Shown here: positions 3,810-64,000 of the stretch, piece by piece
How the letters are laid out: every line of letters starts with the position of its first letter
Position numbering within the stretch: the first letter of the stretch is position 1
Assembly (NCBI GenBank): GCA_905178155.1
Contig: CAJINV010000007.1
Location: forward strand, 466,020-530,019
From: Amoebophrya sp. A120
Lineage: Eukaryota; Protista; Dinoflagellata
Reading direction: 5' to 3'
DNA: 64,000 nt
The notes under the pieces: generated by a model
Databases searched by the model: none
Told to the model about the DNA's origin: nothing
Seen by the model: only the letters and a program-made list of their open reading frames with translations
Translations under genes and position numbers: made by a program

Positions 3810-6800
3810 ATGAACTTACTGCGCGTGGGCCGCGCGTTGCCCGCGCGGTGCTTGACCGTGCTTCTTTCGCTAATCCAAAGCGTCATGGCGGCGGACTGGT
3901 ATGTGCTCTACGCCGGCGACCTTCCGGTGTACATGTCGTCGGTCTGCCGGCTCAGGTGGCTTCTGATCACAAACGGGGTCAGCAAAGACAAGGTATAGAA
4001 GAAGAACTTCTGAATCATTGCTGGTACTATCTGTCATGCAAAACTCGCAAGAAGCACCTGCCTTGTGATGCGCGGCAAATGTAGTTGTGCAACTACACAG
4101 AGCAACATCGGAAAAAACAGATCATCACTTTCGGAAACAAAATAAAAAACTACCCGACTTTCGACGGCCTTCCCGCACCGGATGCAGCCTGCGAGCCAGA
4201 TTTCACCGTAAAGGATGGGGTGTCGGAGAGTTTTTTCTTCAACGCTTTGAATCAAACGTATGATGGTGGGGTATCGGCCCCGAAGGTTTATGCAATGCAA
4301 AAGCATCGTACTAGTATGAATTGCATGACAATTTTTTTCTGGAAGAAAAATGAAATTTGTCATGCAGATTCAGTTAATAAAGCAGATCTGTAATGCTAGA
4401 CTCGCATTTATACGAGTGCGATACTTTTGCAATGTATAAGGTTCTAGCGACGACAAATAGCGACAACGTTTTCATGTATCTGGCAGGGGACACCGGATAC
4501 GACACAATAAGGCTATGCAATGCAAAAGCATCGTACTAGTGTAGATTGCATTACGAATTAGCCCAGCATTACAAATTGAATTTGTGACGCTGATTCACCT
4601 TGAGAAATAGAGTTGTATTGCATAAACGCAACTGCTACAAGTACGACACTTTTGCACAGGATAAAGGCTCGACGGGAGCAAAAACGTCATGCACGGGTAC
4701 GTGACTTTTTTATTGCGAGAGTTTATTGTCATGCTGGAGGTTTTCGTTTTGGTTTTCCACATGAGTTTCTGTTTTGCAGGAAAGTGCAAGAATACAAGCT
4801 GGTGCATGATTCTTCTTATGTTACCCAGTGGTCAAGTAGAAATAGAAAACAAAAACAACCAAAGGTACGACCTTTTTCAGACGCTGATGGACTCCGGCAC
4901 CAAATTTCGGCAAATGCGCATCTTTCTAGACGGCACGCACTTCGGGGACACCTTCATGAAGTCCGCCATCAGCAGTGCCACCACCTGGAACAGCAATGTC
5001 GCAAAGTCAATAAGGATCACAGCCTCCGTATTCAAGAAAAAAACTGTGTTAGTGTAACTTTCCTTGGCTGACAGCATCACAAATTTGCTCTGCATGACAG
5101 CGAAAACCTGTCATGCGTCGCTTGTAAGGGAAAACACACATGACAAGAGGACTGCATGGCTGTCTGGCATGACAGGCGCAACTCTGTTGCATGTTCTGCA
5201 TTACAAAGTTACACTTACACAGTTTTTTTCTTGCATACTCCGGCACCGGGAGCGCGGACGCGACGGGAGCACAGGCCTGTTTTTGCGCGCCACAGACTAG
5301 TGTCAGGGACGCAGTGGAGCGGTTCAGGAATTTGCACCACCTGGCAGAGAGTCGTATTTGATATTTTTTTTCAGGTGTTTCTTCTTGTCATGCAGAATGC
5401 GGCACGAGAGGGGATGTTTTTGATGCAAAAATGCATAATACACTATCAGATGACACCGACCCGCACTACTGTCTGTCCACCCGCTTTGGGCTCACTTTCA
5501 CGTCCACAAACACCGGACCCATATTGAGAGGAAAAATCTCCCCTCCCCATATCAAAATGGAAATTTGTGATGCTGATTTGTGGTCACAAATCATCTTTGT
5601 CTTGCCTATAGGGCAATAGGAGCCAACATGTGGCGCATTCCAAAGCCAATCTGTCATGCGCTTTCGGCTACTGCGAACCTGTTTTCCATGCATAATTGCT
5701 AGCCTTCTGCATACCCAAACAGGCTCAGAAATTGCCGCCAAGCACTTTCTGCAAGACAAACCTGATTTGTGTACTCAAATCCAGCATCAGAAACTTCGTT
5801 TTGATATGGGGTGGGGGGATATTTCCTCACAATAACCCACCTTCGAAAACCACTTCGCCGCCGTGTATGCATTGCAAATATGTCTGGGTCTGGAAGATTG
5901 AAGGAGTTTGTCATGCAAATTTTACAGGACCATGTTGTCGGTGATGCATGCTCTGGCATTGCAGGTTCCGCGAAGGCTTTCGGCTTTGGCTTTCTCATGC
6001 CGATTCTGCATGAGAAATGGGTCATCTCCGGGAAGCAAAAATCTGAGCACCTTTATTTGCTGCTCATGCAATACAGAATTTTCTCTGCTCGCAAGTTAGC
6101 ATGACAAATTCCATTCTTTGCAGACTGCCAGACATATTTGCAATGCATACCGTGAAAAACTCCACAACGTCTGGGGAGTACATCGCGGCCTCAAGTTATC
6201 CAAGAAAAAAACTATGTGAGTGTAAATCTGTGATGTAGAAAAAGCAAAACTGTTGCACTTGTCATGCTGGGTCTGCGTCATAGGCTATTTTCATACGTGT
6301 TTTCACTGATACTAGCTGCGCATGACAGGTTATTTTCCCTGTAATGCAAAACGAATTTGTGATGCTGCTCTTCCGTACAAAATTACACTTACACAGTTTC
6401 TTTCCTGGATACAAGTTCGGAGATGGAATACGGCATTTTCCCGGAAAACACGAACGGGGACTACTTTACCTACTGCACGAACAGCACAGCCTATCGCAGA
6501 GGAGAAAAACAGTGTTAGTGTAGGTCTGTGATGCAGAAAATGCAACACAGTATACACTTGTCATGCCACACGACGACCACGAAGTGGTCCTTTCATATGT
6601 GTTTCCACGACGTACCAGCCACGCATAACAGGTTTTCTCTGCTCTCATGCAAAGCAAATTTGTGATGCTGTCACCCCAAGAATTTTATACTAACAGCTTT
6701 TTTTTCCTGGACACAGCCACGTCCACCGGCGCGGCGGATTGCAACAACATGTACACGGCGTTTCCCTTCACCAACGCGGATAGCATTTATGCATTGCAAA

Positions 6801-8506
6801 TATCCCTGGATGTTTGGAAAGGTGCAAACTTGTGATGCTCTCTGTCAGTTACAGAAAAATCTGTCATGCATGTTGAGCAGCGAAAGCTGTCCATGTGGGG
6901 TAAGCATTTTTGCAAAGCTGTTGCAACAAATTCTGTGATGCTACGGCCCGCCTTCCAAACCGTCTCGGCCATGCAAAAGATGCACGACAAACGTCGGCAC
7001 TCTTCCAGAGGACCCAGATATATTTGCAGCACTTGATAGCATTTACACTTTCCCCAATTACGCCTCCGGGTGCACGAAACACAACAATCTCGTCTCCACC
7101 GAGCTCCTATCAAATGCAAAAATGTCTGGGTCTGGAAACTTGTGATGCTAAAATGTGGATAATAGAAACAGTTCCGAATGCAACCCAGCATGACAACTTT
7201 CCAGAACGCTTTCGCATCGGCAATCCGCATGAGAAGCTGCGACTTTGCATGTACAAAAGAGGCCGCGACTTTTGTTGGTTATGCAATACAGATTTCCTAG
7301 GTATGGAAAGCTAGCATTACAAGCTCCAACCTTCCAGGCCGAGACATATTTGCAATGCATAGCTCCTTGGCAGCTACTACTTTGACAAAGCATTAAGGAG
7401 AAACGACAACGGGGCTTTGAAAGGGGAACTGGGCCTGCGCGTGGACGCAAAAGCGAAGCTGGACAGCTTCATCACCAGCCACCAGTGCATATGCATTGCA
7501 AATGTGTCTGGGTCCTCTGGATTTGTAATGCAAAATTTGAAAGACAGCGAGGATTTGTGATGCATGAACACGATTGGGCAGTTTTTTTGTCATGCTGTGA
7601 AACTGATTTTGTCATGCGAAACACGGTAGAACTCGCAATACCAAGCGAAAAACTCGTGATGCGTAGACGCCGTAGAAGACACCGCTCTGCCATGCATGAC
7701 TCAGCAACAGAAATTCGTTGCGTCTCTCGAGACCCAGACATATTTGCATTTGATAGTGCACGCAAGTCGGCTGTCTCGACACGACCGTTTCCCTCACGAC
7801 GGCCGCAGAAAACGCGTGCTTCAAGGACTTGTTCGCAATAGTCCAGTCGGGGACGGGGGCGCCAGGTACATAAGTAAGTACTTAAGTAACTCTGGTGCGC
7901 CAGATGAAGAAAGGATTTGAAGATTTGTATATGCATGAAAGAACACGACCGTACAAGAAACGCTTTCTCAACATGCTTGCTGACATTCTGAATAGTTACA
8001 ACATGACCATAAAAATCCACCGATCAGGTTACTCCGCCTACACGCTGAAAACGTGGACGCTTCCGTTGGCCAACATGTGCAAGCAGCATAGCGCCGCAAC
8101 ACTAAAAACGGATTTGACGGCTCTACTCACGTCCAGCGGAGGCAACGAGGCGGCGAAGGCGACGAATAACGCAGACGTGAGTTTCATTCTAGCCATCGTG
8201 GGCTTTGCGGTGTCGGGGGCGTTGTATCTGTTCTTCATGTTTTTCGACACCAGAACGATGGAGGACACGGAGGAAATGCAGGTAAGGGTTTTTAGTTGAG
8301 GTTTGTCATGCGAACAACCTATGCATCAAAATCAAATACAACCAAAAATCGTCATCCACGGTTCTCCGGCATGAGCGTGAGTAAGTATCTGACCACTTTG
8401 AAAACGAAAATCATCCCAGGCCATCAAAGACAAGGAGCAGTCTCGGGCGGCGGGGCGAAAATTGCTGCAAGAGCACGACCGGGCGCACGGGGCCTCGCCG
8501 TTGTAG
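3810..8506 (+). CDS. Multi-exon type I membrane/secreted protein of unknown function (signal peptide, Cys/Ser/Thr-rich ectodomain, C-terminal TM); 9 introners plus about 6 conventional introns
   Basis: Hydrophobic N-terminus (CLTVLLSLIQSVMA). Frame stays open when elements are removed (DPHYCLSTRFG...TFENHFAAV KNSTTSGEYIAASS SEMEYGIFP...). TM VSFILAIVGFAVSGALYLFFMFF. GT-AG introns at 3993-4084, 4697-4779, 4831-4864, 7866-8027, 8282-8419; one junction near 5300-5449 is unresolved. Confidence 0.8.
4289..4438. mobile_element. Introner, family B (150 bp)
   Basis: TIR tatgcaatgcaaaagcatcgtact; TSD aggtt; GT-AG register 4286-4440. Confidence 0.92.
4514..4663. mobile_element. Introner, family B (150 bp)
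   Basis: Same left TIR as the 4289 element; TSD aaggc; GC-AG register 4512-4666. Confidence 0.9.
5029..5237. mobile_element. Introner, family C
   Basis: TIR tattcaagaaaaaaactgtgttagtgtaac; TSD ctccg; no AG acceptor in any register. Confidence 0.92.
5522..5834. mobile_element. Introner, family D
   Basis: TIR tattgagaggaaaaatctcccctccccatatc; TSD accca. Confidence 0.92.
5866..6149. mobile_element. Introner, family E
   Basis: TIR tatgcattgcaaatatgtctgg; TSD ccgtg. Confidence 0.92.
6197..6411. mobile_element. Introner, family C (opposite orientation to 5029)
   Basis: TIR tatccaagaaaaaaactatgtgagtgtaa; TSD caagt. Confidence 0.92.
6492..6713. mobile_element. Introner, family C (degenerate)
   Basis: Imperfect TIR; TSD cagcc; frame restored on removal. 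Confidence 0.85.
6788..7038. mobile_element. Introner, family E-related
   Basis: Imperfect TIR (tatgcattgcaaatatccctgg); TSD gcatt. Confidence 0.85.
7108..7361. mobile_element. Introner, family E
   Basis: TIR tatcaaatgcaaaaatgtctgggtctggaa; TSD gctcc. Confidence 0.92.
7490..7755. mobile_element. Introner, family E
   Basis: TIR tatgcattgcaaatgtgtctgggtc; TSD gtgca. Confidence 0.92.
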
Positions 8507-9039
8507 TACCCCGGAGGAGGAGAGTCGTTTCTCAGGAAGGAAACGAAGGGGCGACGGCGGTGGTGCGGCTTCGGCTTCGTGCTATTACAATAGAGATCAT
8601 GATCGGCTACGACCTTCTAGCACAGTAACAGGAATAATTTTTATGTTTACCTTCTAAGACATCCTAGACCAGTACAACGTCAGGGACAGAAAATTCAGAC
8701 AGACTCAAGTCGAAGAATTTGTTCCCTACGATCCTCTGTTGTGTTTCTAAGACTTCTAAAATTTCGCGAACTTTTGAATTTAATTGCACGGCGAGTAGAA
8801 ATGTGATTTGGCGTTGTAGGTATAACTACTACGTGATGAAAAATAGAATGAATATTGGCAAAGTACTACCCGAATGGCAATGCTGTCAAACGAATTGAAA
8901 CAGAACAAGTACGCATTTTTTTAAGAGGTCGGAGGACTCCGACCAGATGACGCAACTGATAGAAAGCAAGCTTCTTGCGCGCAACCTTGTTTCGTGCAGC
9001 TCTTGCGCAATTCGATCTGAGTCACTGTGGTCTCACGTC

Positions 9040-10560
9040 ATTGGGTGTGGCGCGAGCCACGGGGCGGCGGATTGAGTGTAGTGAGCTTTTGTGGCTCGTT
9101 TCCGCTGCGTATGTCTTCACGCAACTCCTAGGGCGACCGAGCAGGAAGGGGCCGCGGCGCGGAGTAATGGCCGGCCGCGCCGCTTGGCGGTTGCAACGCC
9201 GATCCGCTGCAGCTTCGTGGCTCGTGGGCCGCGCGCACTGGGGTAACTCGGTGCGCGGCCGAGCAGGTAGCAATCGCAACCGACCGGGCAAAAGGCCAGC
9301 GCGGCCGACATGGGGAAGGCCCCCGCGGTGAAACAATCCCTGGGCGAATTTTCGACCGATAAGGCTGAGGCGGGGAACGGCAAGGGCTTGAAGGCCCCGG
9401 GCGCTGTATCCTGAACAGGAGAACTCACGCACCAGGCGGGGGGCCTCTATTCAAGCCCGGGGCGCCGAGGGATGCGCGCCGGGCGCGTCAATGCGGGGGC
9501 TCAGCCGGGGCACGTACTCCGCCGCACCCCCGCCCCAGAAAGGAAAGCAGGGCGGGCGCAGCGCGCTGCTCCGGGGCGCGGCCGGTGCGTACCATTGCCG
9601 GCGCTGGAAGTCCGTGCGGGCGCGCCGCAGCCAATGCCCTTCCGCGCCCAAGCAGGGGCCGCGCCTACGGCTGTGGGGCCTGCTGTTGCGCCGGTCGCTT
9701 CGACTGGTCCGGCGGGTACTGCGGCGGGTCCAGGGATGCTTGTTCCGCCATCTCTGCTGCCCGCGGCGGGCGGCAGGGCGTGACAAGGATGAAAGGACCG
9801 GGCCGAGAAGTGGCGGCCCCCGCCTTTCAGCCGGGCCGATGGAAGTAGCGCGCGGCAGTTGCCGCCTCGCCAAGGAGGTGGCAAAAAGTGCGAAACTGGA
9901 GGGGGGCGCGCTACTCCCTGCCCGAAGACAAAGCCGAAACGCAAAAAATGCGGCGGCCTCCCCGGTGTCCAACTCTACCAGCGCGAGGCCCCCGCCCGGC
10001 GGCGCGCCACAGCGCCGGCGGCCTTCGCGACTCTGTGCCCAGGGCCAAACGCCGCCGAAGCCGCGGCTGCTGCCGTGCGCGGCCCTTCTGCGGGCGGCGG
10101 CTTTTGTAATTCGGCGGGCGGCACCCAATTCGCCGCGGCGCTGCCGCGCGCGTCCGCGCGCCATTTTTGCGGCGCCGCCCCGCCCCGCGTTGCAAGCCCG
10201 GCCGGAGCTTTCCTTGCGCGGCCCGTTCGCATAGGGGCGCGCGCGCCTTGCGCAGCTCCGCCTGCAGTGCCGGCGCAGCCTTTTCGCTAAAACGCGCCCG
10301 GCCCGCACGGGGCCGTGCTCGGGCGTGCCGCTCTTCGCGCGCGGGCGCCCATCAAACGGGCGCCCGGTCTGGCTCGGGCGGGCGGCCCTTTTTTCTAGCC
10401 CCGCGCGGGACCCTGCGGTGGGCTTTTTGCTTTCCAGGATGAATGCTTGCAATGCAAACAGAAAATCAGCGAAGCCCCCCGATCGTGCGAAGGCGCACAG
10501 AGGTCCGCCCCGTAGTAAAGTTTTCCGCTCTCCGGGGACGAGATGAGGGGTCGCTACTTG
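9040..10560. other. Very GC-rich island with no credible ORF; probably a decayed repeat or TE
   Basis: Abrupt compositional shift from the flanks; ORFs in all frames are low-complexity Arg/Ala/Gly/Pro. Confidence 0.5.
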
Positions 10561-10820
10561 AGGGGAATGTGGCAGTTTTTCCAGGGGCGTCCAGCACGAG
10601 AGACACTTGAGCGTTTTTTTCGGCGCGAGTGAGGGTATGAGTTAAAGAGTTGGTCTTCCGAACTGTCAAAGCCACATAAAAACACCCGGAACTACACGGC
10701 GCAGCACTGAGATACTATCACGACCCGCTACCACGATTTTTTCTGGCCACAGAAGTTGTTGGCGTCGGTCCTCGTGCCCATAGTAGACACAGCTACAGCA
10801 TCAAACCTGCTTGCCAAAAA

Positions 10821-13800
10821 ATGCGTGACCCCTTCGGCCAGGAGCGGTCGATCTGTTTGAAATGCCAGAAGCACGACCGGGAGTGTCTGGAGTTTTTGCC
10901 CAGCGACATGGACACCGACTGCCTGGACAACGGGGATTTCGATTGGGAAGGGGAAATGAAGGACTTGGACGAGCGAAAAGTCCTGCCCTGCATTCTCGAG
11001 TCCATCACCGCCTACCGACGGAGAACCTTCGACGAAAGCAACATCGTCTGCAAGGCGACAAATTCCAGTTCCTTGCTGCAGAATCTCGTTGGCGGCGGGA
11101 GTAGTGGGTCTACTTCTTCGCCATCTTCACCAAGCAATAATCCCTGCATTGCCACCACGAGCAGTGGTTCTTCCCCGATGAATAAATCGGGTGTACAAAA
11201 ATCATCCGCCAGTACCCTGGTGCAGAAAACGTTCCCACCGACCTTAGCAGCCAGCGCAGCAGCAAACAGACAAGGATCTACGTCGACTTCGAATGCGGCA
11301 AATAACAAATTCACCTCCTACTCGCGGATTTGCCACTGCGGGTGCGATTGCGAAGACCACTTGCTGGAAGTGGTTTCGAAACAGGAGAAAATCGTGTTGA
11401 ACCTGATCCGGCCCCATTTTCAGATGCTGAAACTCAGCTACTCGGTGATGCAGTCGGTTACTGACACGGTGCACTTGGACATTCCCCGAACGGAGTTCAC
11501 CTACGGGGAGATCTACGATGTGGCCTTCCTGCGGTTTCTGAACGAATTGTGGGACGAGTATTACGGGGGAGATAATTTTCTTTCGGCTGCAGGTGCCGCG
11601 GTATCATCCCCTGCAAGCCCAGCCTCGCCGAAATCAGCAGGCCCAGGAAGTCCTGCTTTTTCTTCGCCCAAAAATAATACCGGCGCAGCAGCAGGTTCTT
11701 CGCCCAATGTCCCGCACACGCGACCCAGCAAAACCACTGCCGGGGCCGCGCTGGCGGGGAACGGCTCACCGACGAATTCGAAAACTACGAATCTGCTGAA
11801 GAACAACACACAGACTTCTAGCAATCCCGGAACAACATCACCAAGTAGCAACAGGCAAGGAATATTAAACAGTACGAACGGCGCCACCTGTTCGCCGAAG
11901 CCCCTCTCTCCCTTCCACGACCAGTCGCCGGATGTGTCGAAAAGAAGACCGTTTCAGGGAAAATTCCTGGACCTCGGCTGCGGCACGGGGAAGGCGGTTT
12001 TTCTCGCAACTTGGTCGATATGACAGTGCACACCCCCCCCTCCCCCTCATTTGTCATGCAAAATACCCAGTCCACCCTTTGACTCCTAGCGCTGTTTGCG
12101 TGACAAGTTCTGGTAGCCCAAATAGCATTATACTCCCTTGCAAATTTGTCATGCAAAACCGGCACTCCTGCTGATGCTTGTATTGCCGTTCACGCTATAC
12201 AAATGAGGGGGAGGGGGAGTTGTGCACTGTTATAGCCGAAGTGGCAGTTTGAGAAAGCGGAGGGAGTGGAATTACTCCCCGGCCTGCACAAGCTTGCGTG
12301 CTATCTGAAAGACAGCATTTATATCACACAGCAAAAAGTAAAAGCTGGCAGGGCACATTTGTAATGCAAAAAGAAATACTCAAAATCTGCGCTGCACATC
12401 CGAAACAGCATGCTATGGGGCCACCCATGACAAATTTTTCTGTGTATTTATTTTTGCATTACAAATCTGCCCTGCGAGCTTTTTTCTCTGGGATAGTTTA
12501 CAAGTCGTGTGACGCCCTGTCCCCGAAAACGCGGTCGGTGGTATTCTAAGTAAAAACATCCCCACCCCAGAGTTGTCATGCAAACCTGCATGGCAAAAAA
12601 GTTTCTCATGCGGAGCCCCATGCGAAGCATTTTCTCGTCGTGTGTTGGAATTTGTGGTGCTTTAATCAGCATGAGATGCTAGGTCTGTGATGCTGCTATA
12701 CTAGCTAAACAGCATTACACTACGAGGACAAAACTGTCATGCGACACAACCCAAGCTAGTTCAATTTGTCTAGCTGATTTTCCAACTACTTGACTACGGG
12801 TTGGGGACGTCTTTCCTCGGGATACGTGGCGAAAATTCCCCAAACCGACGTAGAATTCTTTCTCGGGGACGTGGCGAAGTGGCATCTGCAGCAGGCGGGG
12901 AAAGAAGAAGCAGAAGAAGGAGAACAAGACGGCGCAACAAGTCGTGCAAATGAAAACAATGATCTGAAGCTCGTGTACATCGCGTCAACGGTTTTTGGCG
13001 AGGAACTGATGGCGAAGATACGGTTCGATGTACTGCCGAAGGTCTGGTATGCAAGTGCAAAAGCATGGACAACGAAGTTGCTTGCCCATATTTAATATTT
13101 GGTGGAATTACCACCAAGTGTGTAGACAAGAGAGAAGCTTGTCGGCGAGTATCTGATGTGTAGTCTGGTACAACGGCCTGCTCGTGGTTCATTCTTCGAT
13201 ACAGAGCGGAAGAATCAGTGATGCGAAACTACGTACTGCGGTATTTTGAAACAGTCACATGCATAATTTCCTGCTCGCTTCAATCATTTCTCCCTCGTGG
13301 GCGACACACAGACTCCAAGGAAGTACAACTTCGCAGCCTTTGCAACCGTTCCATAAATGCAGCAGGGACACGATCATTGTGACGCTGAAGAACAAATTGC
13401 CGGATATAGAAATTTATCAACTGTAAAAATGTCTGGGTCTGGAAGAATGCAAGTTTGTCATGCTTGTCTGGCATGACTCGGGAATCTGTGTTGCATAGGC
13501 ACGAAAAGGCGCTTTTACCTGTCATGCAAAAACGCAGTTTGCCATGCAAGATACGTAAGACATGGGAGCCAAAAAATTTGTCATGCATAGCTGCGTATTG
13601 CAGTCCGTCTACCATTCACTTTTAGCATCACAAGTTTCCAGACCCAGACATTTTTACATTTGATAAAATTTTGCAAGAAACAAAACTCCTCGTCTCCTGG
13701 GGCTATAGCCCTTGCTACGTCTGTCGCCTGCCGGTATCAAAAGAAAAAATCCCCCCTCCCCATATCAAAACGGAAATCTGTGATGCAGATTTGTTGTCAC

Positions 13801-44639: not shown

Positions 44640-44698
44640 GGTGATCTTCATCTTTTCGTCGTTGTAAAAATCACAGTGAGTACAACTGCTACAACAGC

Positions 44699-53271: not shown

Positions 53272-53460
53272 CACAGTAGTGCAGTTCTGGTTCTGGCAAT
53301 ATTAAAAAAGCAAAAATAATAAAAAGTAAAAAATTTTTTAAAAAAACAAAAAACAGCAGCAGTAATCCGCTTCGCACGTGCACAACAGATCTACATCGAG
53401 CGCCATTTTGGCAGCAATAACAACGACGACTTCTCGCCCACTTGTTTGAATTGAAGAAAT

Positions 53461-56400
53461 ATGATGATGAGAACTAACAGAACAGTACCGCTTTACCCAC
53501 TCTCGCTGAGAGTAGGCACACGCACGTGGATAAACGTTTTGCACCTTATCCGCAACAAAATCCGAGATCTAGTAAGAAGAGGCCCGCACACGTACACCGA
53601 CAACATGTGCGCGACCACTCAACAACTTATAGTAGCAATGAAAAGCTACGCTTTTGCACGAACAGCAGCGCCACGGGGGCAGTGTAACTATTGCAGACAA
53701 ACAAACCGATGCAGCTGCGTAGTCACCTTCGACTATGACAAAAGAGCAAAACAAGTAACCTACTCCACCAACAGATTCCAAGCCGAGAACCTGCCCGAGC
53801 CTTGGGCAGAACAATGCAGAGACAGCAGACCACTACCAGCGCCGAGAATAGGAGGGCGACACTTCTTGCCAGTGTTGAGAGATTCTCTTTTCAGCCTTGA
53901 CCAATGGATCGCCAGGGCGTTCCTGGACAAAAGCGACACACATTTCTGCAGGACCCTACGAAACAAACTGGAGATTTGTTGCGCGGCAAACGAAGACGAA
54001 CGGGAAGAAGGAGAAAACGAGGAGGGAGTTATCTACCTCGCCTGGCGTCCGGGAACGCGGTCGACTTACATCGGACAAACCATTCAGCACAAGAAGACCA
54101 GATGGAAGTGCCACTGGTCCGAGAAGATCAGCGAGTACCGTGATGGACGGGGGTGCGCGTTCCATCGAAAAGAGCTGGCTGAGTACTTGTTCGTGAGAGT
54201 GATGCGAGCGCGAATAGTGGAGTCCACGCCGCTGAAAATGGCCGAGATGATGTTGATCGGGTATTTCAATGCAACGGCGAACACGATGGAGAAAAAAGCG
54301 AGCGCCAAGGGCAAAAAGTACGGGGGAATTCGGAAAACGATCATCATGACCGCCAGAACCTGCAAGGAATTCCGCTCGACGAGACGAAGAAGAGAAGGAG
54401 GAGAGCACAGAAGCCCAAGCGACAAAATTCCGAAGGAAGCGGCGCGGATTTTGAGGACGAGGAACCTGAAAGAGGTTGGCTACAAGTTCCTGAAGCTCAT
54501 TACGAGGCTGTCACTGAGACTAAAGGAGCCGCCCCGACACGTTCAGACCGCCCTCACGAATCTCAACACTAGACAGGTGATCGCGCTGGACAGATATGCG
54601 AGGCGGATTTTGGCCGATGGGAAATACCTGATGTTCCAGCACCACCTCAAATGCATACGAGGCGAAAAAATAGCAGCAAGAATAGCCACGGTCGAGCTCT
54701 TCGACACATCACCAGAAGCAATCGGGCCGCTTCTCTCGATCTACAGCACGATGGCGCAGAGGTACAAACATGAAGGAACAGGAGAAGGAGATGTCATCAT
54801 CCGGATAAAGAGAAAAAAGTGCGCCCGAACGCATGACTTTTTCCGAACCCGGCTGAAAAACTGGCATGGCCTATTGGCCTACTGGGAGCAGACAGGACAA
54901 GACGCACCATGTCACTGCAAGAAGATCAAAGAACTGTACCCAGATGCCCCCCTCGTTGATGGACATGTGTGCTTTTCAACAAAAACGCTGCCGCTGCTAA
55001 AACCGGGAAAAGACCCAACCTGGAACAAGCTCGGCAGGTTCCACCCGAACAGAAACGAAACAGAGAGGCACTTTGCAGCAGCCAGAAAGAAACTAGAAAA
55101 AGCGATCGGGACGAAGGTAATAAAGCTAGACGGGAGAGCAGACAGATGGGCGGCCGAAAAATCAGTAGACTGGACGTGGGTACAAGATAACCGAGTTACT
55201 GTCGACGACATTGACGCGAGCCTGCTGGCCTTTTCGAGAGCGAATATTCTGTACTGCGACGAAGTAGACAAAGACCCCGAGAAGCAGCTTTTCTTCTCTT
55301 GCAACAGGTTGATGCAGAGAACGATGAAAAAACACACCGAGGAGTACGAGAAGGTGCCGGGGTGGTTCGGGTTGACGAGAAAAGACGAAGCCGGCGAGTT
55401 TTTCAGCTTGCACAAGGATGGAGGAACTTCGATGAGAGCCAGCAGGCGACACAGGTTGCCCTTCCTGCGCATCCTGTTCAAGGCACGTTTTATCAACAAA
55501 CTACAACGCGATGACTTCCTTCCGTGGCCCGATGAAGGGATAGCCTACCGCCCGCTGACATCATATGCCGGGCATTGTTACAAGCGAATTCTATCAGCAG
55601 CAGCAAAAATAGCCAGAAGGATAATCGAACCAACGGCAAGACGAACAACTTTTTATACGCAGCGACAAGTAGTGGAAGAAATTGAAAAAATCAACCGACA
55701 CTTCGCAGAGACAGGGAAACAAGACGAGGAGCTACAGCTGGACACGGGAGACCTGAAAGATTTCTTCACGCGTTGCGACACAGCGGATTCGACGAGTTTC
55801 CTGGGAGGTTTCACTAGCTCCCTGGAGAACAAGGGGGTGAAATACATCGCCATGGAAGCAGACCACATCCTCCGAGAAAGACTAGATGTTCACCGAGACC
55901 GACCAAGACTGCGCGGAGGGATGGAGGAGCTGTACAGAATCGAAAAGCCAAAACCGCAGAGGAGATTTCAGTACCTGAAGAAGAAACCGGGCAAGGGAAT
56001 AACCTGGATGACGCCGAGTTTTGTGAAGGAGGTGCTACAGCTAGATATCAACTTTTGCTATGTCCGATGTCTAGGACACATCCTCCGCCAAACTACTGGC
56101 GGGCCAATGGGATCCCCTGCAATGGTCGAAATCAGTAACGTGTTTGGCTACAAACATGAAAGAAGTAGTAGTGCAATCCTTGGCTTGCTGCTGTACAAAA
56201 GATACATTGATGACATTCTTCGGGTGCGAATAGCGAAGAAGAATAGCCAGCGCCAGCCCCTTGCGAACATATACCCCGGCTGCCATGTGAAGAACACGAC
56301 GGCAGAAGAAGAGTTTTGCGGCATGAAAGCCACATGTGACGGAAGAAAAATACGCACGATGGCCCTGCCGAAGAAGAAAGGGGTTCCAGAAAAAAGCAAC

Positions 56401-56475
56401 ACAAGCCAGCAGCAAAGACAAGGAATTGCATACGGTAGAATAGTTTATGAAAGAATGTTAGAAACTAGTGCATAA
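53461..56475 (+). CDS. GIY-YIG endonuclease plus Penelope-type reverse transcriptase
   Basis: GVIYLAW…TYIGQT…RWKCH…EMMLIGYFNATAN (GIY-YIG); RT motifs YRPLTS, TGDLKDFFT, LRQTTGGPMGSP, KRYIDDIL, EFCGM. Confidence 0.9.
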   Translation: MMMRTNRTVPLYPLSLRVGTRTWINVLHLIRNKIRDLVRRGPHTYTDNMCATTQQLIVAMKSYAFARTAAPRGQCNYCRQTNRCSCVVTFDYDKRAKQVTYSTNRFQAENLPEPWAEQCRDSRPLPAPRIGGRHFLPVLRDSLFSLDQWIARAFLDKSDTHFCRTLRNKLEICCAANEDEREEGENEEGVIYLAWRPGTRSTYIGQTIQHKKTRWKCHWSEKISEYRDGRGCAFHRKELAEYLFVRVMRARIVESTPLKMAEMMLIGYFNATANTMEKKASAKGKKYGGIRKTIIMTARTCKEFRSTRRRREGGEHRSPSDKIPKEAARILRTRNLKEVGYKFLKLITRLSLRLKEPPRHVQTALTNLNTRQVIALDRYARRILADGKYLMFQHHLKCIRGEKIAARIATVELFDTSPEAIGPLLSIYSTMAQRYKHEGTGEGDVIIRIKRKKCARTHDFFRTRLKNWHGLLAYWEQTGQDAPCHCKKIKELYPDAPLVDGHVCFSTKTLPLLKPGKDPTWNKLGRFHPNRNETERHFAAARKKLEKAIGTKVIKLDGRADRWAAEKSVDWTWVQDNRVTVDDIDASLLAFSRANILYCDEVDKDPEKQLFFSCNRLMQRTMKKHTEEYEKVPGWFGLTRKDEAGEFFSLHKDGGTSMRASRRHRLPFLRILFKARFINKLQRDDFLPWPDEGIAYRPLTSYAGHCYKRILSAAAKIARRIIEPTARRTTFYTQRQVVEEIEKINRHFAETGKQDEELQLDTGDLKDFFTRCDTADSTSFLGGFTSSLENKGVKYIAMEADHILRERLDVHRDRPRLRGGMEELYRIEKPKPQRRFQYLKKKPGKGITWMTPSFVKEVLQLDINFCYVRCLGHILRQTTGGPMGSPAMVEISNVFGYKHERSSSAILGLLLYKRYIDDILRVRIAKKNSQRQPLANIYPGCHVKNTTAEEEFCGMKATCDGRKIRTMALPKKKGVPEKSNTSQQQRQGIAYGRIVYERMLETSA

Positions 56476-57830
56476 CAGTCCAGAAGTAACAGGTTCCTGC
56501 CGCCGCGCACTCCGATGCCTCGACCTTGTTATGGAAGACACGCAGAAGTCTTGCTCTTGCACAACGACCTCGACGAAGGACATCGATGACAAACACTTGG
56601 GAGGACGATGATTAGTAAAAATAAAATAAAAAAACAATAAAACGCCTGGATAAAACCGACAAAAAATAGCACGTGCAGCAGAACGCCTCGAAGTCCGAAA
56701 ATGCTTATCTTTCCCAGTGAGCCCCGGTGCAGCTGGAAAAAGAGAAGATGATGATGTTGTTGTGCTAGAAAAAATGTGAACGTACTGGAAATNNNNNNNN
56801 NNNNNNNNNNNNNNNNNNNNNNNNNNNNNNNNNNNNNNNNNNNNNNNNNNNNNNNNNNNNNNNNNNNNNNNNNNNNNNNNNNNNNNNNNNNNTGGACTTT
56901 CCCGATGTTCTAGCACTTCTTTACGTTTGGAAAACTTCGTTCGTCTTTACACTTCGTCGCTTTAGTGAGATCAAACTGTCTCCGGAACTTCTATTTCAGA
57001 TTACGCATGAACGTATTTGCAGCATCACAAACTGTTTCGCTTTAACCGCGCTCTTGATCGAGCTGCAGCTGTGCACCAACTTCGATTCCGAAACGATTAA
57101 AAACAGATCATGACCAACAAGAAACTATACAGAAAACTCCGTAGAATTTGAGACCGACTTCAGCGTTGGGAGGAGAACCAACTAGGGACAACGAACAAAG
57201 TATTTTGAAAGCCAAACGAGCGGAAACGTGAACGATTCCTGACGAAAAATGCACAATTGTAAAAGCAAAAAGCAACCTTGTATGTAGATAGTCCAATCAG
57301 TCCCGGGTCTGAAGAATATGCCGCAGTGATTCACAATGGAGTTCGCAATTTGGGTTCGGTTTACGCGGTGCGGAATAAATGTAACAACTAGCCGATAAAT
57401 GTAGCAGCTAGACAGAAGTAAAATGGTTCGTTTTGGTTCCGTTCTCCGTTCATAGTGCTCGTCGTCCCATTTGTCCGTCGTCCACGTGTCGTTCTTAAAT
57501 TCGTGGCACACTGTCGTCCACTTGCCGTCCTTTCGACGCCGTTCAGTTGATCGACCTTGACCAAAGTTGTACAGCTTCCAGCCGTGTTGGTACGTACTAG
57601 CTCCATGAAACAATCCGTATTTTCACTATATTCAAACGAAGCTGCATAGTTGTACTTGTCGTTCTGGTTCTCCTCCTTCTTCCTCCAGGGAAACAAGCCT
57701 TCAATGGAAACTGAAAGTACTACATCCCTTTTGATTTTTCTCACGCCCCTTCGCTAGGAGTAAGAATACAACTTATCAGGATCATAAAAGTACCTGTTTA
57801 ATACCCGCCGGCCGTAGATCTTCCTCCAAG

Positions 57831-60800
57831 ATGATGGGTTCTTGGAACATCAGAAGGACCCAGCATAGAAGTGCCTTCTCCACCTTCGGGTCTTGCGCGC
57901 ACAGTCTCTACTCGACACGACCACGAGGATCTTTTCTCCTGTCACTTTTCCTCCTCCTCGCGCATCATCTTCAAGATCATAGTGCAGCAAACGCATTCCA
58001 GCTCGTGCAGCAGAAACGGACAGGAGATCTGCACAGGACGTTGTCGCACCGGAGCAAGAACCAGCATGGCCAGAAGATTTTTGCAAGTAGTTCTCGCACA
58101 ACTTCTGTGGTTTCCGCGGATCAACAGGGAGAGGACGGCACGACGAGGACCGGGGGTATGTTGATTATTCTGAGTAAAAACGTCCCCACCCCATAGTCAA
58201 GTTGGGAATCTAGCAACACAAATCTCCAAGTTTTGGGAGCTGTGCATGACAAGTTTCCCTCTGCAACGGAGTGCTGATTGGCAAGAGAAGCCGCATGAGA
58301 AAGCAACTTTCCCATCCTGTTTACAGCATCACAGATTCCACAACACGACTGGAAATGCCTCTCATGGAGCTGCGCATTACAAATGTTCCTGTCGTTGCAC
58401 ATTTGCATGACAACTCTGGCGTGGGGACGTTTTTACACAGGATATTGATGCAGGTTTCATCGTCCTCCAAAACCGGAACCGAATATGGATTGCAAATATC
58501 CCTGGATGTCTGGAAGAGTCGAACTTGTAATGCTTTCCGCGGATTCTAAAAATATCTGTGGTGCATGAGCAGCAAGAGGAGTCAGTTTTTGGCACGCGGA
58601 GAGGGCATTTCTCATGCGTAATTGGCATCAAGCAGCTCTCAAAAACTTTAACTTTGTGATGGTAGCACCAGCATCACAGAACTCACGGGTCATGCAAAAC
58701 GTGCATGACAAGCCCCGACTCTTCCAGACATCCAGGGATTGTTGCAGTTGATACCGAAAGCGGAACCGCAAAAATTGAGTCGGAGGACAACTCGGTGATC
58801 ACCGACAACTTTGAACTTGTGGGGAATGGTATCCAAGAAAAAAACTGTGTAAGTGTAACTTTGTGTTGCAGAAAATGCAAAACTGTTACACTCGTCATGC
58901 TGGACATGCATCAGAGGCTATTTTCGTACGTGTTTTCAAGTGCTCTCGGGCTGGAGGAGGGAGTAGCACGCAGCAGTCCGCAAAAGGGCACACTGCCAAC
59001 ATCATCATCATCATCAAGTACTAGCTACGCATAACAGGTTTTCTGCGTCATGCAGCATGCAGAGCAAACTTGTGATGCTATTCTTCCAAGAGACTTACAC
59101 TTACACAGTTTTTTTCTTGCATAAATGGGCACTGCGGGAACGATGATCACCCCCTGTGGGCGAATGCGCAGTTTGTGGCGGATGTCAACGAAAGGCAGTG
59201 TGCGGAGTCTTGTCTTAATAACAAATGGGTGGAAAGCCTCGACAATGAAAGCGCTTGGAACTCGAAGCACTTTCCCAACGGCGATGGTACTTGGAAAACG
59301 TGGAGCGCAGACAAACCCATCAAGGGAGAGTGCACGGGTTACAATTATTCAAATAACTGTCTGATTTACAATGACGAATCAGGAGCAGAAAAAAAGTTTG
59401 CAGTAACCCAGGTCTGGAAAAAGGAGGAGGAAAGGGAATCCTGGCTTTCCGATGCGTTGTATGGCAAGGGAGATGATGCAGAAAGAAACACGTTGAAAGA
59501 CCTCCTCGACAGTTGGAGTACGCATCCCTGTAAGAAAAAGAAGCCTTGCGTCGGTTTCGGGTTCCATGACGCCAGTTCGTGCAATGGCGCGCACGAGGAA
59601 GACAAATGCGTGTGGGGTGTGAAGTACAAGTTAGAAAGTGCGGAAAGATGGGTGGAGGAAGGTGGTGAGGAGATCTGTCTCAGCTGCAGCATAAGCATTG
59701 CAAAAGCATTGCACTGGTAGAAATTGCATTTATACAAATTTGCTCAGCATAGCAAATGGAATTTCTAAATGCTGATTTGGCTCCGGAAGGAAATTTGTGA
59801 TGCATAACTGCGATTACTGCGAGTGCGATACTTTTGCACAGGATACAGCACAAAAGACGGAAAGACCGAGGCCGAGTGCGAGGGTTTTTCGGGCGGCAGT
59901 TGCGTGTATGAAGCTGGCGAAGTCAATCCAGCCGAGGGTCTGTGTGTGCCGAAGCCAACGACAACCACGACCACAACCACGACGACAACCACGACATTGG
60001 CGCAAGCTCCGTCACCCAGCGTATCGTAAGGAAAAATCCCCCCTCCCCATATCGAAAAGGCACACCTCAGAAAATTTGCCATGCTGATTTGCGACCACAG
60101 ATCTGATTTGAGTTTTTTTGTTTTTAAGGCTAGGAAAAGACATGCAACTGGGGACAGCACGCTATTGCGCATCTAGCACCCGTCAAGTCCAGGAGAACGA
60201 GCCAAGGACGCTCCCACCAATGCAGCAACGGCCGTCCCTGGGTGGTTGAGTGTCGTCCAGACCGACGGCGGTAGATTCTTCTGGAGGCGGAGGCTAGATT
60301 TTCAATAGTGGAGGAAAGATGTCAAATTATGTATGAAGTGCTCACGTATTCTATACCCTAATGCGACCCAAAAAGGAGAATCTCTCCTCCGTCAGCATGC
60401 CAATAGCATTTGGGTGCACTACTGTGTGGAAGGCTCTTCTACTTTTTCCAAGCGGCTGGATTTCTCGTAGAATTGCCGTCGCACAAGTAGCGCAAGTGAC
60501 ATCTTTTAGGGGGGTGCCTACCCTTTTGCATGTTCGATTTTGATTCGTTATTTCTTGATTTTCAGAATGATGATGATAATTTTTTCTGGTTAGCCCGTAG
60601 CCATTTTGGCTCAAGCGCTAGCCCGCGTAGCCCGCATCCTCGCAGGGGCAGCTGTTTTTTTTTCCGCCTTGCCAGCGGATTTTGTCGCGGGGAAGAATGC
60701 AGTCTGGGTTCAGCCGTCCCTCCCTCCCGGGGTTCATCTACACAAACACTAGTCCTGCGTCCTTACTCTAGTCCTTTTTCCGTAGATCATGTCTTACGTT

Positions 60801-63121
60801 CGACCTTATGGCATCGGCGGCTGTCGCATTATGCGCCTGGTGTAGTTGTTCAAAGTCCTTCGGCATAAGGGTCATAGTCTCGTATACAAGGCGCGCGACA
60901 GCTAAATGCGCGTTTGGTCGTTCTAGAAAATTAGTATCACCTGATCCATTCTCGGCCTATAGTATTCGTGGACCACCCCTTTGAGGAAGCGGGTGCGCTC
61001 GGTTGACCTCTTTCATAGGTTGGTCATGGGGAATTCGTTTCCCACTTGTCATGCATTATTGGTCGCCGACATTTCGTTTTTGCATGGCGTGCTCGAGTAC
61101 CGGGGTGCTGGAAGACGAATTAGTTGCTAATAGATAAAATCAAAAATTTTCACTACTCTTCGTGCAGCGGCTTCTGCACATAGCTTTAGTCTCGACCTTT
61201 AGCCCCGCCCCCCCAAAAACATTACATATTTTACTACGTCTCCATCTACGTCCCAACGTGGACGTCTGCCGCGGCTTTCGGCATTAGACGTTAACTAAAG
61301 CGAGTGCGTTGCGCGGGTTTAGGGTTCCCCCGGTTTGTATCTCCCGAAAGGCATGCTTTGATGGGTTTAGGGTTTCGAAGAAATTTTATCGCATGACGCG
61401 TGACGGGAGCACGCTAGGTAAGCGCAGCGGGCGGGTACCGTTCTCGCCGTAACACAATTCCAGAAAGAAAAAAGACATCTTTTTGGGGGGTGCCTACCCT
61501 TTTGCATGTTCGATTTTGATTCGTTATTTCTTTTTTTTTAGAATGATGATGATATGTTTTTCTGGTTAGCCCGTCTAAAAAGGGCTGGAGTCCCCTTTTC
61601 CTTTTCTTCAATATTTTTTTTGCATGCGGGTAGCCGAATAGAGGCCGAGAGGACCACTGTCCTCGAGTCTGCGCAGCGGCTTACTGCGCAGCGTCGGTTC
61701 GTACACGTGTGTCGCCCTTCGTTCGTCCTCTTCAGGAGCTTGATCGCAAATTCGTACGCTCCTCCTGCTTTAAAAAAATACGATCTTCCCGGCTTCCCCC
61801 ATATTCCCATGTAGATTTTGGCGCCTACCCCTTTACTTCTTCTGTCGTGTAGTGTTGTTGGCTTACCTGACTCGCCTTCTTAGCGCTAGCCTGCGTAGCC
61901 CGCGTCCTCGCAGGGGCAGCTGTTTTTTTTTTCCGCCTTGCCAGCGGGTTTGATTCTGGGGAAAGTGGCTTTCTGAGTTCAACCGTCCCTCCCACCCGGG
62001 GATCAACCGTCCCTATCCCTCCCCCGTTTTAGATAGACCGTTTTGCGCAGCCATAAGCACGACTTGAAAAACAAAAAAATACAAATAATTTTTTGTGTAG
62101 ATCACATTTTTACGTGCGTTTTTTCGGCATCGGCGGCATTCGCACTTCGAACCCGGAGTAGTTTCCAAAAGTCCCTCGGCATCTGGGTCATAGTACAGCT
62201 TCAGGGTTCCGCGTTTGCTAAATGCACGGCTTTTCGCACTTAGGTCACTAGTATCGCCTGTTCCAAATCAGCTCGACCATTTAATATTCGTGGGCCTCCC
62301 CTTAGAGGAAGCGGGTGCGCTCGGTGGGCCGTTTTCATAGGTTGGTCATGGGGGACCTGCTCCCCATTTGTAATGCATGACTGGCCGCCGAAGATCTCAG
62401 TTTGCATTTGCGTGCTCGAGTACCGGGGCGCAGGAAGGCGAATTAGTTCTAATAGATATTTTGAAAAATTTTAATCTCTTCGTGCAGCGGCTTACTGCGC
62501 ATACAAATATTCTCGACCGATATCTTTGTATGTGGGCGCGCAGAAACTTTTTTTCGATTTACTACGACCCCATCTACCTCCCCTGGTGGACGTCTGCCGC
62601 GGCTTACGGCTCTAGACGTTAACTAGGATTCAGTGCGTTGTGCGGGGTTTAGGGTTCAAAGTAATTTTGTATCTCCCACTGCTGCATGCACTCTGCTGGC
62701 GATCTTATCATGCAAAACAACCTCCGGGTTGTTCCCGCGTATCAGGAGTAGTCCTGGTGCGTGAGGGCCGCAGAAGATGAAGAAAGGTGATGGTTTAGGG
62801 GGTTCGCCGATTTTGTACATGTGTGATGCAAAAGATGAAAAGAATTTCGCGCGTGGGAGCGCATTAGTAAGCACAACGGGTGGGTGCCGTTCTCACCGTA
62901 ACACAAGCCCACAAGAACAAGAACATGATCCGCTCCCGCAGGCAAAAAAAATTTGCGACCACAGATCCTCTCTGTCTTGCACGAAGGCAACCCCACAGGC
63001 CCCGCAGTATTATGTAGGCAGTTTGTGATGCTATTGGGCCTACAGCATAGACGTTTAGCATGCTAAGCACCTAGGCCAGCGCCTCTCTACTCGGGCTTGA
63101 TATGGGCTTGCAGTCCTCTAG

Positions 63122-63216
<95 letters not shown>

Positions 63217-64000
63217 GTGTAAGCAGATCTGGCATCAGAAGCTTCGTTACGATATGGGGAGGGGGGATTTTTCCTTTTGATACAGCACGGACGAACAGCA
63301 GTCGGGACCTAGTCCGACTCCCGTATCATATGTAAAAACGTTCCCACCCCATAGTCAGGTTGGGAACTCAGCAACACAAATGCAGAAGTTTTGGGAGCCA
63401 CGCATGACAAGTTGCAGTAGTCCGCAGTATAGTGCACGTTAGCAAGGATATCTTCCGCATCGCAAATCCATGTGCTTGTCTTGTTTGCAGCATCACAAAT
63501 TCCAAAACAGGACTGGAAATGCCTCCGTTGGGGATGCGCATTACAAATGTTCCTGTAGTCGCAAATCTGCATGACAACTCTGGGAAGATGGGGACGTGTT
63601 TACACAGGATATCCCAGCGCCACACCTTATGTTTCTCCACCAGGGGAGGAGTCCGCGATTACCACATTGCACCTCATTATGGATGTGTCAGGAGTGAAAT
63701 CGACAAAGTTGAAATGATTTGTTTATGCATAAAATGCAGCCCACAACGTGCCTGGCTTGCAGAGTAGGCAAGTGAGGCAGATTGTAAGCCTGTTGAGGGG
63801 TAGAAACTGAGCTGCTAAAATAGCATGCCAAAAGGCGTTTTCTTTACCCAAACAGCATCACAATCTGGATTTCGGTTCTACCCAAATTTGTCATGCACCA
63901 CTTGGAAACTGGGCTTCCAACTGGTATCGATTTTATGCATGACAAACTATTTTAACTTGGACGATTGCAATCCTGACACTCCCATAACCATTCTGATCTG
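57831..64000 (+). CDS. Secreted/membrane protein with a PAN/Apple-like repeat, a second Cys-rich domain and a Thr-rich stalk (paralog of 49109); continues beyond the window
   Basis: Frame restored over elements 58166, 58484, 58830, 59692, 60022, 63324 and 63678: FELVGNGHCGNDD…QCAESCLNNKWV…ECTGYNYSNNC…PKPTTTTTTT…PSTDEQQSGPSPTP. Confidence 0.72.
58166..58444. mobile_element. Introner, family F
   Basis: TIR tattctgagtaaaaacgtccccac; TSD ttgat. Confidence 0.92.
58484..58753. mobile_element. Introner, family E-related
   Basis: TIR core atccctggatgtctggaagagtc; TSD ccgaa. Confidence 0.9.
58830..59123. mobile_element. Introner, family C, with a 78-bp internal insert
   Basis: TIR tatccaagaaaaaaactgtgtaagtgtaa; TSD aatgg. 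Confidence 0.93.
59692..59845. mobile_element. Introner, family B
   Basis: TIR taagcattgcaaaagcattgcact; TSD cagca. Confidence 0.88.
60497..62906. repeat. Two diverged tandem copies (~60497-61458 and ~61474-62906) of an unidentified repeat
   Basis: Collinear shared blocks at 60497/61474, 60614/61882, 60962/62284 and 61400/62850. Confidence 0.85.
63121..63217. repeat. (TAC)n microsatellite, about 32 units
   Basis: Perfect trinucleotide run at the right end of the 3-kb insertion. Confidence 0.97.
63324..63611. mobile_element. Introner, family F
   Basis: TIR tatcatatgtaaaaacgttccca; TSD tcccg/tccca. Confidence 0.88.
63678..63986. mobile_element. Introner, family H
   Basis: TIR tatggatgtgtcagga; TSD ctcat/accat. 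Confidence 0.85.

Follow-up and report, generated by a model that had tools for sequence, protein, structure and literature searches.

Introner elements of the dinoflagellate Amoebophrya sp. A120 have been reported to make up 17% of the assembly (29,850 copies) and to be bounded by inverted repeats (IRs) that start with TAT, run through seven variable bases and continue with at least three A, next to short direct repeats of 3-5 nucleotides (nt); their splicing proceeds mostly without GT-AG borders and without U1 small nuclear RNA (snRNA), is left unexplained, and no transposase is reported in the parts of the source available to us (PMC7789003). The accessible part of a later study lists an 808-bp A120 family with integrase-like homology, annotated "5-bp TSD, TA/TA Termini" (TSD, target site duplication), and a family 38 without Ginger termini and TSDs (PMC12130899). 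Here we analyzed a 64-kb stretch of Amoebophrya sp. A120 (the window), in which genes on the plus strand are split by 150-320 bp inserts with TAT...ATA ends. The anatomy of these inserts fits A120 introner elements (the label "A120-type" refers to anatomy only): the TAT/AAA IRs, the short junction repeats and the mostly noncanonical ends are those described in the available portions of both reports (PMC7789003, PMC12130899), and the family lengths of 149, 209, 252, 260, 278, 305 and 319 bp in the consulted portion of the 2025 supplement match elements found here (PMC12130899). We find that a 12-bp word repeated along these elements is shared by families that do not align and is phased with the DNA helix, and we consider it probable that the word is the binding site of one double-stranded DNA (dsDNA)-binding protein common to all families, which would bend the element for synapsis of its ends.

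Elements were called in the window with a motif-blind search for TSDs and terminal inverted repeats (TIRs), which gave 47 calls; three (nested or spurious) were dropped and one was re-cut. The final set comprises 49 full elements, 43 from the motif-blind search and six, the re-cut one included, placed by hand and partly guided by uncovered motif matches. Further copies came from metagenome contigs scanned with the type A TIR pattern (10 of 64 parts scanned), which returned at least 171 stretches; among the 80 loci listed, all but one were from JACKZZ01 contigs, and L059 was a chance match. Merging of 168 related loci produced 150 sequences (456,736 bases) with 370 element calls, of which 358 were retained after exclusion of duplicates and of calls longer than 345 bases. 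Window and related loci together provided 407 elements, among which type A is over-represented by design, its TIR pattern having served as the probe; 366 of them belong to 17 subfamilies with at least three copies and lengths of 150-321 bp. These are the hallmarks of miniature inverted-repeat transposable elements (MITEs): short length, TIRs, a TSD, many related copies and no coding capacity. In a type-weighted logo the ends read T 0.98, A 0.99 and T 0.99, partly fixed by the search rule, with A at 0.63-0.86 at bases 11-15, and the elements thus follow the described order of TAT, about seven variable bases and at least three A. The TSD is 5 bp long, with 106 mismatches in 2,035 positions, while the adjoining positions match at chance (104 and 101 of 407), and no two of the 407 elements form a pair with shared flanks. 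Since TAT ends, the A-run at bases 11-15 and the 5-bp TSD are common to all families, a remote common origin of the families is likely.

The original prediction, made from the window sequence, held that the octamer TGTVATGC occurs several times per element, on both strands and in families with different TIRs, and that it is rare in exons and in the retroelement open reading frames (ORFs). Both statements were borne out. The window contains 169 matches (94 on the plus and 75 on the minus strand) versus 6.93 ± 2.85 expected from 100 dinucleotide shuffles (largest 15), so that a lack of enrichment, named in advance as fatal to the idea, is not what we see. Within the 49 full elements (12,887 bases) lie 143 of the matches, with at least one in 46 of the 49; another 15 are in element fragments, five in GT-AG introns and six in the remaining 48,288 bases. 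The exact octamer was absent from 8,718 bases of three retroelement ORFs, from 2,235 bases of exons backed by RNA-like contigs and from 4,246 bases of other long exons (6,481 exon bases in all). The anticipated difference between elements and exons was thus present, but canonical introns did not follow suit, four of five in one gene being positive. The motif also starts earlier than the predicted position 4289, its first site being at 1209, and the octamer is only the repeated core of a longer unit, the 12-mer A-Y-Y-T-G/C-T/C-V-A/T-T-G-C-W, with T4, T9, G10 and C11 invariant and with permitted variants that include TTCTCATGC, TTGCCATGC and TTGTNTTGC. Matrix seeding favored the invariant columns; counts of single-base variants give the same pattern independently. 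The tolerated changes include transversions (G to C and the reverse at base 5, A to T and the reverse at base 8), while T is almost barred at base 7; such a spectrum resembles a binding profile and does not look like neutral decay.

The consensus of each subfamily contains 4-7 sites; in some subfamilies these are spread evenly over the two strands, in others they are one-sided (type D, 0+/6-; subfamily F5, 4+/0-). Only the TATGCATTGCAAA end allele scores as a site (10-13.8), and otherwise the motif is not part of the element's own TIR. The word resembles, we presume, Sox-Oct, C/EBP-ATF, ApiAP2 (TGCATGCA) and RBFOX (UGCAUG) words, of which those of ApiAP2 and RBFOX do not fit the common variants GCATCACA and GCATTACA and were rejected. 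A triple-motif pattern found eight loci in viral contigs; the three inspected are tandem repeats, several others have regular short-period spacing, and three single matches to the TIR pattern have 0-2 sites, and all were set aside as unrelated.

Alignable common ancestry does not account for the sharing, because the families fail to align after masking of the sites and the outer 16 bases: 118 of 136 pairs of masked subfamily consensuses scored z ≤ 4 and 13 scored z > 6, which sorts the families into seven groups (z > 5) or nine groups (z > 6), all with the motif. At the invariant motif bases, 211 of 7,566 cells (2.8%) depart from the family consensus, compared with 9,085 of 44,583 (20.4%) in the interior, 6.1% in the inner TIR and 1,301 of 7,847 (16.6%) in control TGC/GCA triplets outside the motif, and the 2.8% stays constant while interior divergence climbs from 6% to 34%. 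Alignable ancestry alone, the other outcome that was to have undone the original prediction, is therefore contradicted on both counts.

How this conservation arises can be read from the ten families with at least 14 copies. There are 88 variants confined to one copy in 204 invariant columns versus 850 in 1,303 interior columns, and 12 versus 960 that are shared by at least three copies (odds ratio 8.3); the ratio of motif to interior is accordingly 0.66 for one-copy and 0.08 for shared variants. Sites thus mutate almost freely on terminal branches, but damaged versions rarely give rise to lineages. Site damage is commoner in copies whose TSD has mutated and which must have aged where they sit (53 of 1,390 versus 158 of 6,176, or 3.8% versus 2.6%, p = 0.015). 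Our inference is that selection operates mainly as copies give rise to new ones, and not at the locus.

Spacing was analyzed with one consensus for each of eight groups, in three different picks. Same-strand pairs 31-33 bp apart numbered 14, 14 and 13 in the three picks, in seven of the eight groups each time, compared with a mean of 4.4-4.6 and a maximum of 8-9 for the best 3-bp window in 2,000 random placements, and the 19-21 bp spacers between paired sites are dissimilar across groups. Window copies alone give the same peak (36 pairs at 31-33 bp), and other same-strand peaks lie at 49-54, 80-85 and 92-95 bp. A scan of periods from 7 to 20 bp, in which opposite-strand pairs were pooled at a 3-bp offset chosen from the data, was best at 10.3-10.4 bp and exceeded all 500 null maxima in every pick; with period and offset taken from four groups, the four others were predicted (p = 0.008, 0.001 and 0.0025). 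Periodicity relative to the TIRs, proposed earlier as a check, was likewise found: measured from the TAT end, inward-reading sites cluster at 30-31, 38-42, 51-53, 61-62 and 70-74 bp (p = 0.003-0.04). The helical phasing of the sites is a new result.

Removal of the elements from RNA was followed in contigs of runs X3, X5 and X8 (two samples), whose RNA nature is a guess, no run being on record as RNA. One X1 contig is continuous over 7575-12052, and depth at 9012-10339 is 25-30 in X1 but close to nil in X3 and X4; these observations support the RNA reading. In X3, X5 and X8 all ten elements in 3700-9100 are skipped as the element plus exactly 5 bases, and the same contigs skip five GT-AG introns; X3 has six more joints of this kind and none were counted in X1, though X1 counts saturated, and the raw runs X10 and X11 gave 14 partial reads and 0 reads. 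Such removal restores the pre-insertion sequence, so that exactly one TSD copy stays in the RNA; the direct repeat of the A120 introners is hereby resolved as a 5-bp TSD. Two single cases with TSD mismatches locate the junction within the duplication, behind base 2 for the element at 12019 and somewhere from base 2 to base 5 for that at 13048. Of 306 strand-called elements, only 23 can be read as GT-AG introns. Sites are not needed for this removal. The element at 13048-13355 has none and is still skipped, as are, by contig arithmetic (103 = 103 and 169 = 169 bases), those at 19764-20167 (best score 7) and 22597-22763 (no site); the element at 19139-19421, with antisense sites only, is skipped by the same arithmetic, and long frames reappear when the antisense-only elements at 42417, 47263 and 58166 are taken out. 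Since removal from RNA can do without the motif, the splicing signals must lie at the ends, in the TSD or in the fold.

Absence of gene-strand bias, equal decay on both strands and removal of site-less elements together favor a DNA signal over an RNA signal. DNA of 110-320 bp is near or below its stiffness length, so that bringing together both ends of so short an element needs bending, and a dsDNA-binding protein that oligomerizes or bends DNA would require just such sites, placed on one helix face in either orientation and kept in register with the ends. A role in protein binding and bending for end synapsis would fit this arrangement: one protein may coat one helix face of the 110-320 bp element by way of the 12-mer array, the coated element would then bend until its two TAT ends meet for transposition, and the array would act as a transposition enhancer, with an integrase-type DDE transposase of the TA...TA kind (IS3EU/GingerRoot-like) as the presumed catalyst. 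Of the shared factors first suggested for the motif, a protein-binding site common to unrelated families is retained on the strength of masked nonalignment, conservation and phasing, and an RNA splicing or excision factor is given up as a requirement. Whether the binder would be the transposase itself or a shared host helper seems to us about equally likely either way; the inner TIR (bases 17-30) is family-specific and well conserved, a pattern that would fit family-specific transposases working with a common helper.

Could the motif instead be an RNA signal, recognized by a splicing factor standing in for the missing U1 snRNA and placed on both strands so that either orientation is spliced? 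U1 is undetected in A25 and A120 in the available part of PMC7789003, an inward-reading site lies 30-53 nt from an end in most families, and all five octamers in GT-AG introns are on the sense strand, the first in each of the four introns beginning, as a 12-mer, 20-37 nt past the donor. We nevertheless rate this account as very unlikely. Among elements of asymmetric families, 106 have the motif-rich strand as sense and 90 as antisense (p = 0.28), and insertion occurs in both directions in families whose sites lie on one strand only (type D, 14 versus 9; type A subfamily F5, 5 versus 8); damage is alike in sense and antisense sites (84 of 717 versus 78 of 685, p = 0.87), and a 5'-sense site is kept no better than a 3'-antisense site (damaged in 20 of 191 versus 18 of 192). 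The motif fails as an intronic splicing enhancer because of this lack of bias and because antisense-only and site-less elements are removed or restore frames on removal, and a 10.4-bp phasing has no reason in single-stranded RNA; the 11-bp A-form period does not fit the spacing either. Least likely of all, in our view, is that the motif has no binding function and goes back to an ancestral repeat unit that every family inherited, or serves as an RNA hairpin block in which plus and minus copies pair. The common TAT...AAA ends and 5-bp TSDs speak for shared ancestry, interiors of seven of nine consensuses fold better than shuffles (z of -2.6 to -8.9), and in predicted folds another motif is the pairing partner of 364 of 696 core motif bases. 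The motif is, however, conserved seven-fold beyond its surroundings, the spacers are not alignable although the spacing is kept, families with one-strand arrays have 0-3 motif-motif pairs, and the TIR arms show no excess of G-U over A-C (253 versus 245); the conservation and spacing tests largely refute this explanation.

A host chromatin or DNA-binding factor acting at the inserted locus, through positioning of nucleosomes or of dinoflagellate/viral nucleoprotein (DVNP), as an intron mark or as a co-transcriptional aid to splicing, might also be recruited by the sites, carriers being tolerated and therefore spreading; this we hold to be unlikely on balance, though with a real minority share. 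The period of nucleosomal DNA is close to the 10.3-10.4 bp found here, a single factor would account for why families that differ in their inner TIR share the sites, the two units of an insert that is not an introner keep a site at the same place, and one-copy changes are somewhat depleted. Sites moreover persist in GT-AG introns: four of the five RNA-supported ones, which belong to one gene, have an octamer on the sense strand close to the donor. Apart from the site these introns show no homology to the families, and the data contain no further copies of them. Erosion of introners may account for them; an inward site would then stand at that place and would have outlived the TIR. Two more GT-AG introns, placed by eye, have no site, and only 3 sense versus 4 antisense sites follow 209 donor-like positions in the related loci, so that intron sites are not a general rule, which also bears against an RNA signal. 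Selection at the locus should deplete one-copy and shared changes alike, contrary to the ratios given above; sites in older copies decay about as fast as the inner TIR, three elements without sites are still removed, and there are only six exact matches in 48 kb outside introns.

Several observations weigh against the proposed binding and bending for transposition. The GT-AG introns hold five octamers where 0.09 are expected, and a pure transposition signal does not predict sites in four of five such introns. One-copy changes are about one-third rarer in the motif than in the interior (0.43 versus 0.65 per column), which leaves room for weak selection at the locus, and, the copies being related and type A over-sampled, the p-values computed from cells overstate independence. 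A 16-bp period fits the same-strand pairs too, less well in the pooled scan, element lengths show no phasing, and the pair distances are not independent of each other. Gene strands in the related loci come from a codon heuristic that called 62 of 150 loci, with a weak donor-motif check; this caller agrees with a second one in 56 of 56 cases, and miscalls would blur a real bias. Pfam found no DDE or integrase family in 63 long ORFs, a search insensitive here in that it also missed the ORFs of the window resembling reverse transcriptase (RT). No autonomous element was found among seven long TIR-bounded candidates (nested or tandem cases) or at the 13 truncated or interrupted among 39 orphan type A ends, and in the part of their report available to us Farhat et al. 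found no transposase in A120 (PMC7789003).

In these searches, neither the window nor 457 kb of related loci yielded a cognate transposase-bearing element, and the ORFs inside two longer elements showed nothing recognizable by eye. An integrase-type enzyme is the leading candidate for the catalyst, because the 808-bp A120 family with the same TSD length and TA/TA termini has integrase-like homology. A wider version of the proposal, which on present data we think unlikely, would have one host or helper DNA-architecture protein license unrelated mini-transposons through the phased 12-bp code, the sites possibly being kept in old GT-AG introns as a DNA-level mark and tying transposition to intron recognition in a lineage reported to lack U1. 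If true, families could diverge freely and yet share one mobilizing machine.

Table 1. Introner elements and site-bearing GT-AG introns of the window. Site counts are 12-mer sites on the plus (+) and minus (-) strand; "skipped" means that the element plus 5 bases is lost from RNA-like contigs.
Feature	Position	Strand	Sites	Remarks
Type F, TSD CAGGC	1176-1392		2+/1-	removal of element plus 5 gives 475-codon frame
GT-AG intron	3993-4120	+	two sense sites 32 bp apart (intron positions 37, 69)	
Type G (150 bp)	4289-4438		2+/1-	skipped
Type G	4514-4663		0+/1-, no strong sense site	skipped
GT-AG intron	4697-4864	+	one sense octamer (weak 12-mer, score 8)	
Type B	5029-5237		1+/3-	skipped
GT-AG intron	5354-5449	+	one sense site at intron position 30	
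Type C	5522-5834		2+/2-	skipped
Type A	5866-6149		1+/2-	skipped
Type B, orientation opposite to 5029-5237	6197-6411		3+/1-	skipped
Type B	6492-6713		3+/0-	skipped
Type A variant	6788-7038		3+/0-	skipped
Type A	7108-7361		1+/4-	skipped
Type A-like	7490-7755		4+/1-	skipped
GT-AG intron	8282-8419	+	one sense site at intron position 20	
Type F	12019-12234		2+/0-	skipped; junction after TSD base 2
Type J	12322-12495		1+/1-	skipped
Type D	12542-12824		3+/0-	skipped
Old element	13048-13355		none at score ≥7	skipped; junction between TSD bases 2 and 5
Type A	13415-13665		5+/1-	skipped
Type C	13735-14045		2+/3-	skipped
Type A	14352-14613		1+/3-	
Degenerate type A-like	16184-16495		1+/0-	
Type C, right end approximate	16560-16877		2+/0-	
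Type A	16883-17134		5+/1-	sites at element positions 39, 70, 103, 123, 162 (+), 211 (-)
Type E	17185-17490		2+/5-	
Type D	17558-17842		0+/2-	
Type A	17896-18156		0+/1-	
Type A	18480-18746		5+/0-	
Type A variant	19139-19421		0+/2-, antisense only	skipped (contig arithmetic)
Type A	19483-19745		2+/4-	skipped (contig arithmetic)
Old type E-like	19764-20167		best score 7	skipped (contig arithmetic)
Type B	20209-20423		2+/3-	skipped (contig arithmetic)
Type A	22174-22425		5+/1-	skipped (contig arithmetic)
Old type D-like, outside the 49	22597-22763		none	skipped (contig arithmetic)
Type A	34204-34464		3+/1-	
Type A	35242-35512		1+/0-	
Type A	40300-40551		5+/1-	
Degenerate type A-like	40597-40908		0+/1-	
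Type H	41468-41704		alternating +,-,+,- ~48 bp apart	
Type E	41751-42010		2+/2-	
Type A	42417-42668		0+/4-, antisense only	removal gives 317-codon frame
Type I, TSD CAGGT	42980-43289		2+/2-	TSD allows GT-AG reading
Type I	44334-44639		2+/2-	
Type A	46760-47052		0+/1-	
Type A	47263-47513		0+/3-	removal restores frame
Type D	47609-47890		5+/0-	
Type A	49928-50179		1+/3-	
Type D	58166-58444		0+/6-, antisense only	removal gives 396-codon frame
Type A variant	58484-58753		2+/2-	
Type B	58830-59123		2+/1-	
Type G	59692-59845		1+/0-	
Type C, split by ~2.85 kb nested insert and CTA microsatellite	60022-63282			not autonomous, longest frame 122 codons
Type D	63324-63611		0+/6-	
Type I	63678-63986		1+/1-	

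Some features of the elements deserve mention in their own right. The two ends of one element often differ in allele at bases 4-8 (e.g., TATCAAATG and TATGCATTG), in any combination, and complementarity of the TIR arms falls to 106 of 243 at base 7; such mixed end alleles suggest end swapping, or a tolerated loop adjoining the cut site. The TSDs CAGGC, AGGTT, CAGGT, GGTGA and GGTTC (at 1176, 4289, 42980, 44334 and 47263) permit a GT-AG or GC-AG intron reading and offer introners a path to becoming canonical introns. A 109-116 bp introner type in the related loci, among the shortest such elements (L023:734-849, L024:469-577, L030:6805-6913 and L060:1008-1119), has strong sites ~31 bp from an end (31 and 70 in L023). 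Near 18223 a type A element end and its flank occur twice around a single N (17896-18409) with different interiors, which is probably an assembly join of two copies. The microsatellite in the split type C element has 33 copies of CTA (63118-63216). The ~2.85 kb insert in the same element (60110-62950) has a direct repeat of ~16 bases at its flanks, a run of T close to the left end and a run of A at the right end, and contains two units ~74% alike with conserved blocks, each with a 12-mer site at the same place (61047 and 62369); it gave no Rfam match (60000-63300) and no tRNA, and Rfam over the whole window also gave no match.

Elsewhere in the window, a 1,192-codon frame (24401-27979, plus strand), which as judged by eye opens like an endonuclease, contains an RT "FADD" motif and closes like an RNase H, looks like a long interspersed nuclear element (LINE), and had no Pfam match at 1e-4. 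A 705-codon frame (51154-53271) is followed by one of 1,006 codons (53455-56475), both on the plus strand, the latter with a GIY-YIG-like motif N-terminal to an RT "YIDD" motif; we take these frames to resemble Penelope-like elements with an N-terminal endonuclease, and the sequence just upstream of them recurs at ~56893-56990, between assembly gaps. A tandem array of 106-107/251-bp units with G- and C-runs (38015-38557) and an 18-bp array (38761-38858) have no introners around them. Diverged duplicated blocks were seen by eye (33545-34050 versus 39480-40300, 39103-39460 versus 43815-44100, and 21880-22170 versus 39945-40180); they include 5' regions common to paralogous genes at 40-48 kb, with introners at different positions. 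In the related contigs, L025:3-1079 encodes a C-5 cytosine DNA methylase domain, with no tie to the motif.

Spacing by whole helical turns and bending of short DNA for synapsis are features of Fis enhancers, of IHF and of the RAG 12/23 rule, to which the phased word stands in analogy only, since organisms and enzymes differ. Ginger1 and Ginger2 have termini of the TG..CA type, and membership there was rejected on the TAT...ATA termini of our elements. IS3EU/GingerRoot elements, as far as the available text goes, have TA..TA termini and a TSD of usually 6 bp (PMC10045372; PMC12730594). The termini are shared with the elements described here, and integrase-like DDE chemistry would fit a short staggered TSD, but we do not file the elements under that group because their TSD is 5 bp. 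The available part of the literature on our subject (PMC7789003, PMC12130899, PMC9860276 and bioRxiv 10.1101/2024.09.05.611473; figures, Roy et al. 2023, two supplement files of PMC12130899 and 18 of 58 A120 rows being outside its scope) contains no report of this motif, and what could be consulted of the two A120 introner studies describes no internal shared motif or phasing (PMC7789003, PMC12130899), whereas both are found here.

Our results suggest practical and conceptual uses of the phased 12-bp word: as a bait for pulling down the mobilizing protein, and as a grammar for a genome-wide search for autonomous or active copies and a way to date copies. The finding separates the puzzle of transposition from that of splicing, and it indicates that "unrelated" introner families can form one system joined by a cis code and not by alignable sequence. 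The nearest described arrangement is that of the Emigrant MITE, in which Lemi1 proteins bind the TIRs and, cooperatively, subterminal repeats; there, and in Sleeping Beauty, hAT and CACTA as cited in the same source, a short motif is likewise repeated inside the TIRs in both orientations, and for Emigrant as for the introners its arrangement is likely to matter for a nucleoprotein complex (accessible text of PMC1636448). Like such subterminal repeats, the introner motif lies inside the TIRs in both orientations and is conserved above background; it is neither TIR-derived nor family-specific. The Emigrant repeat, in the same text, is half of its own TIR, whereas the introner word spans the whole element, is shared by 7-9 families and is phased. 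Subterminal repeats as such are known; new, as far as the consulted literature goes, is one whole-element, helically phased word across nonalignable introner families.

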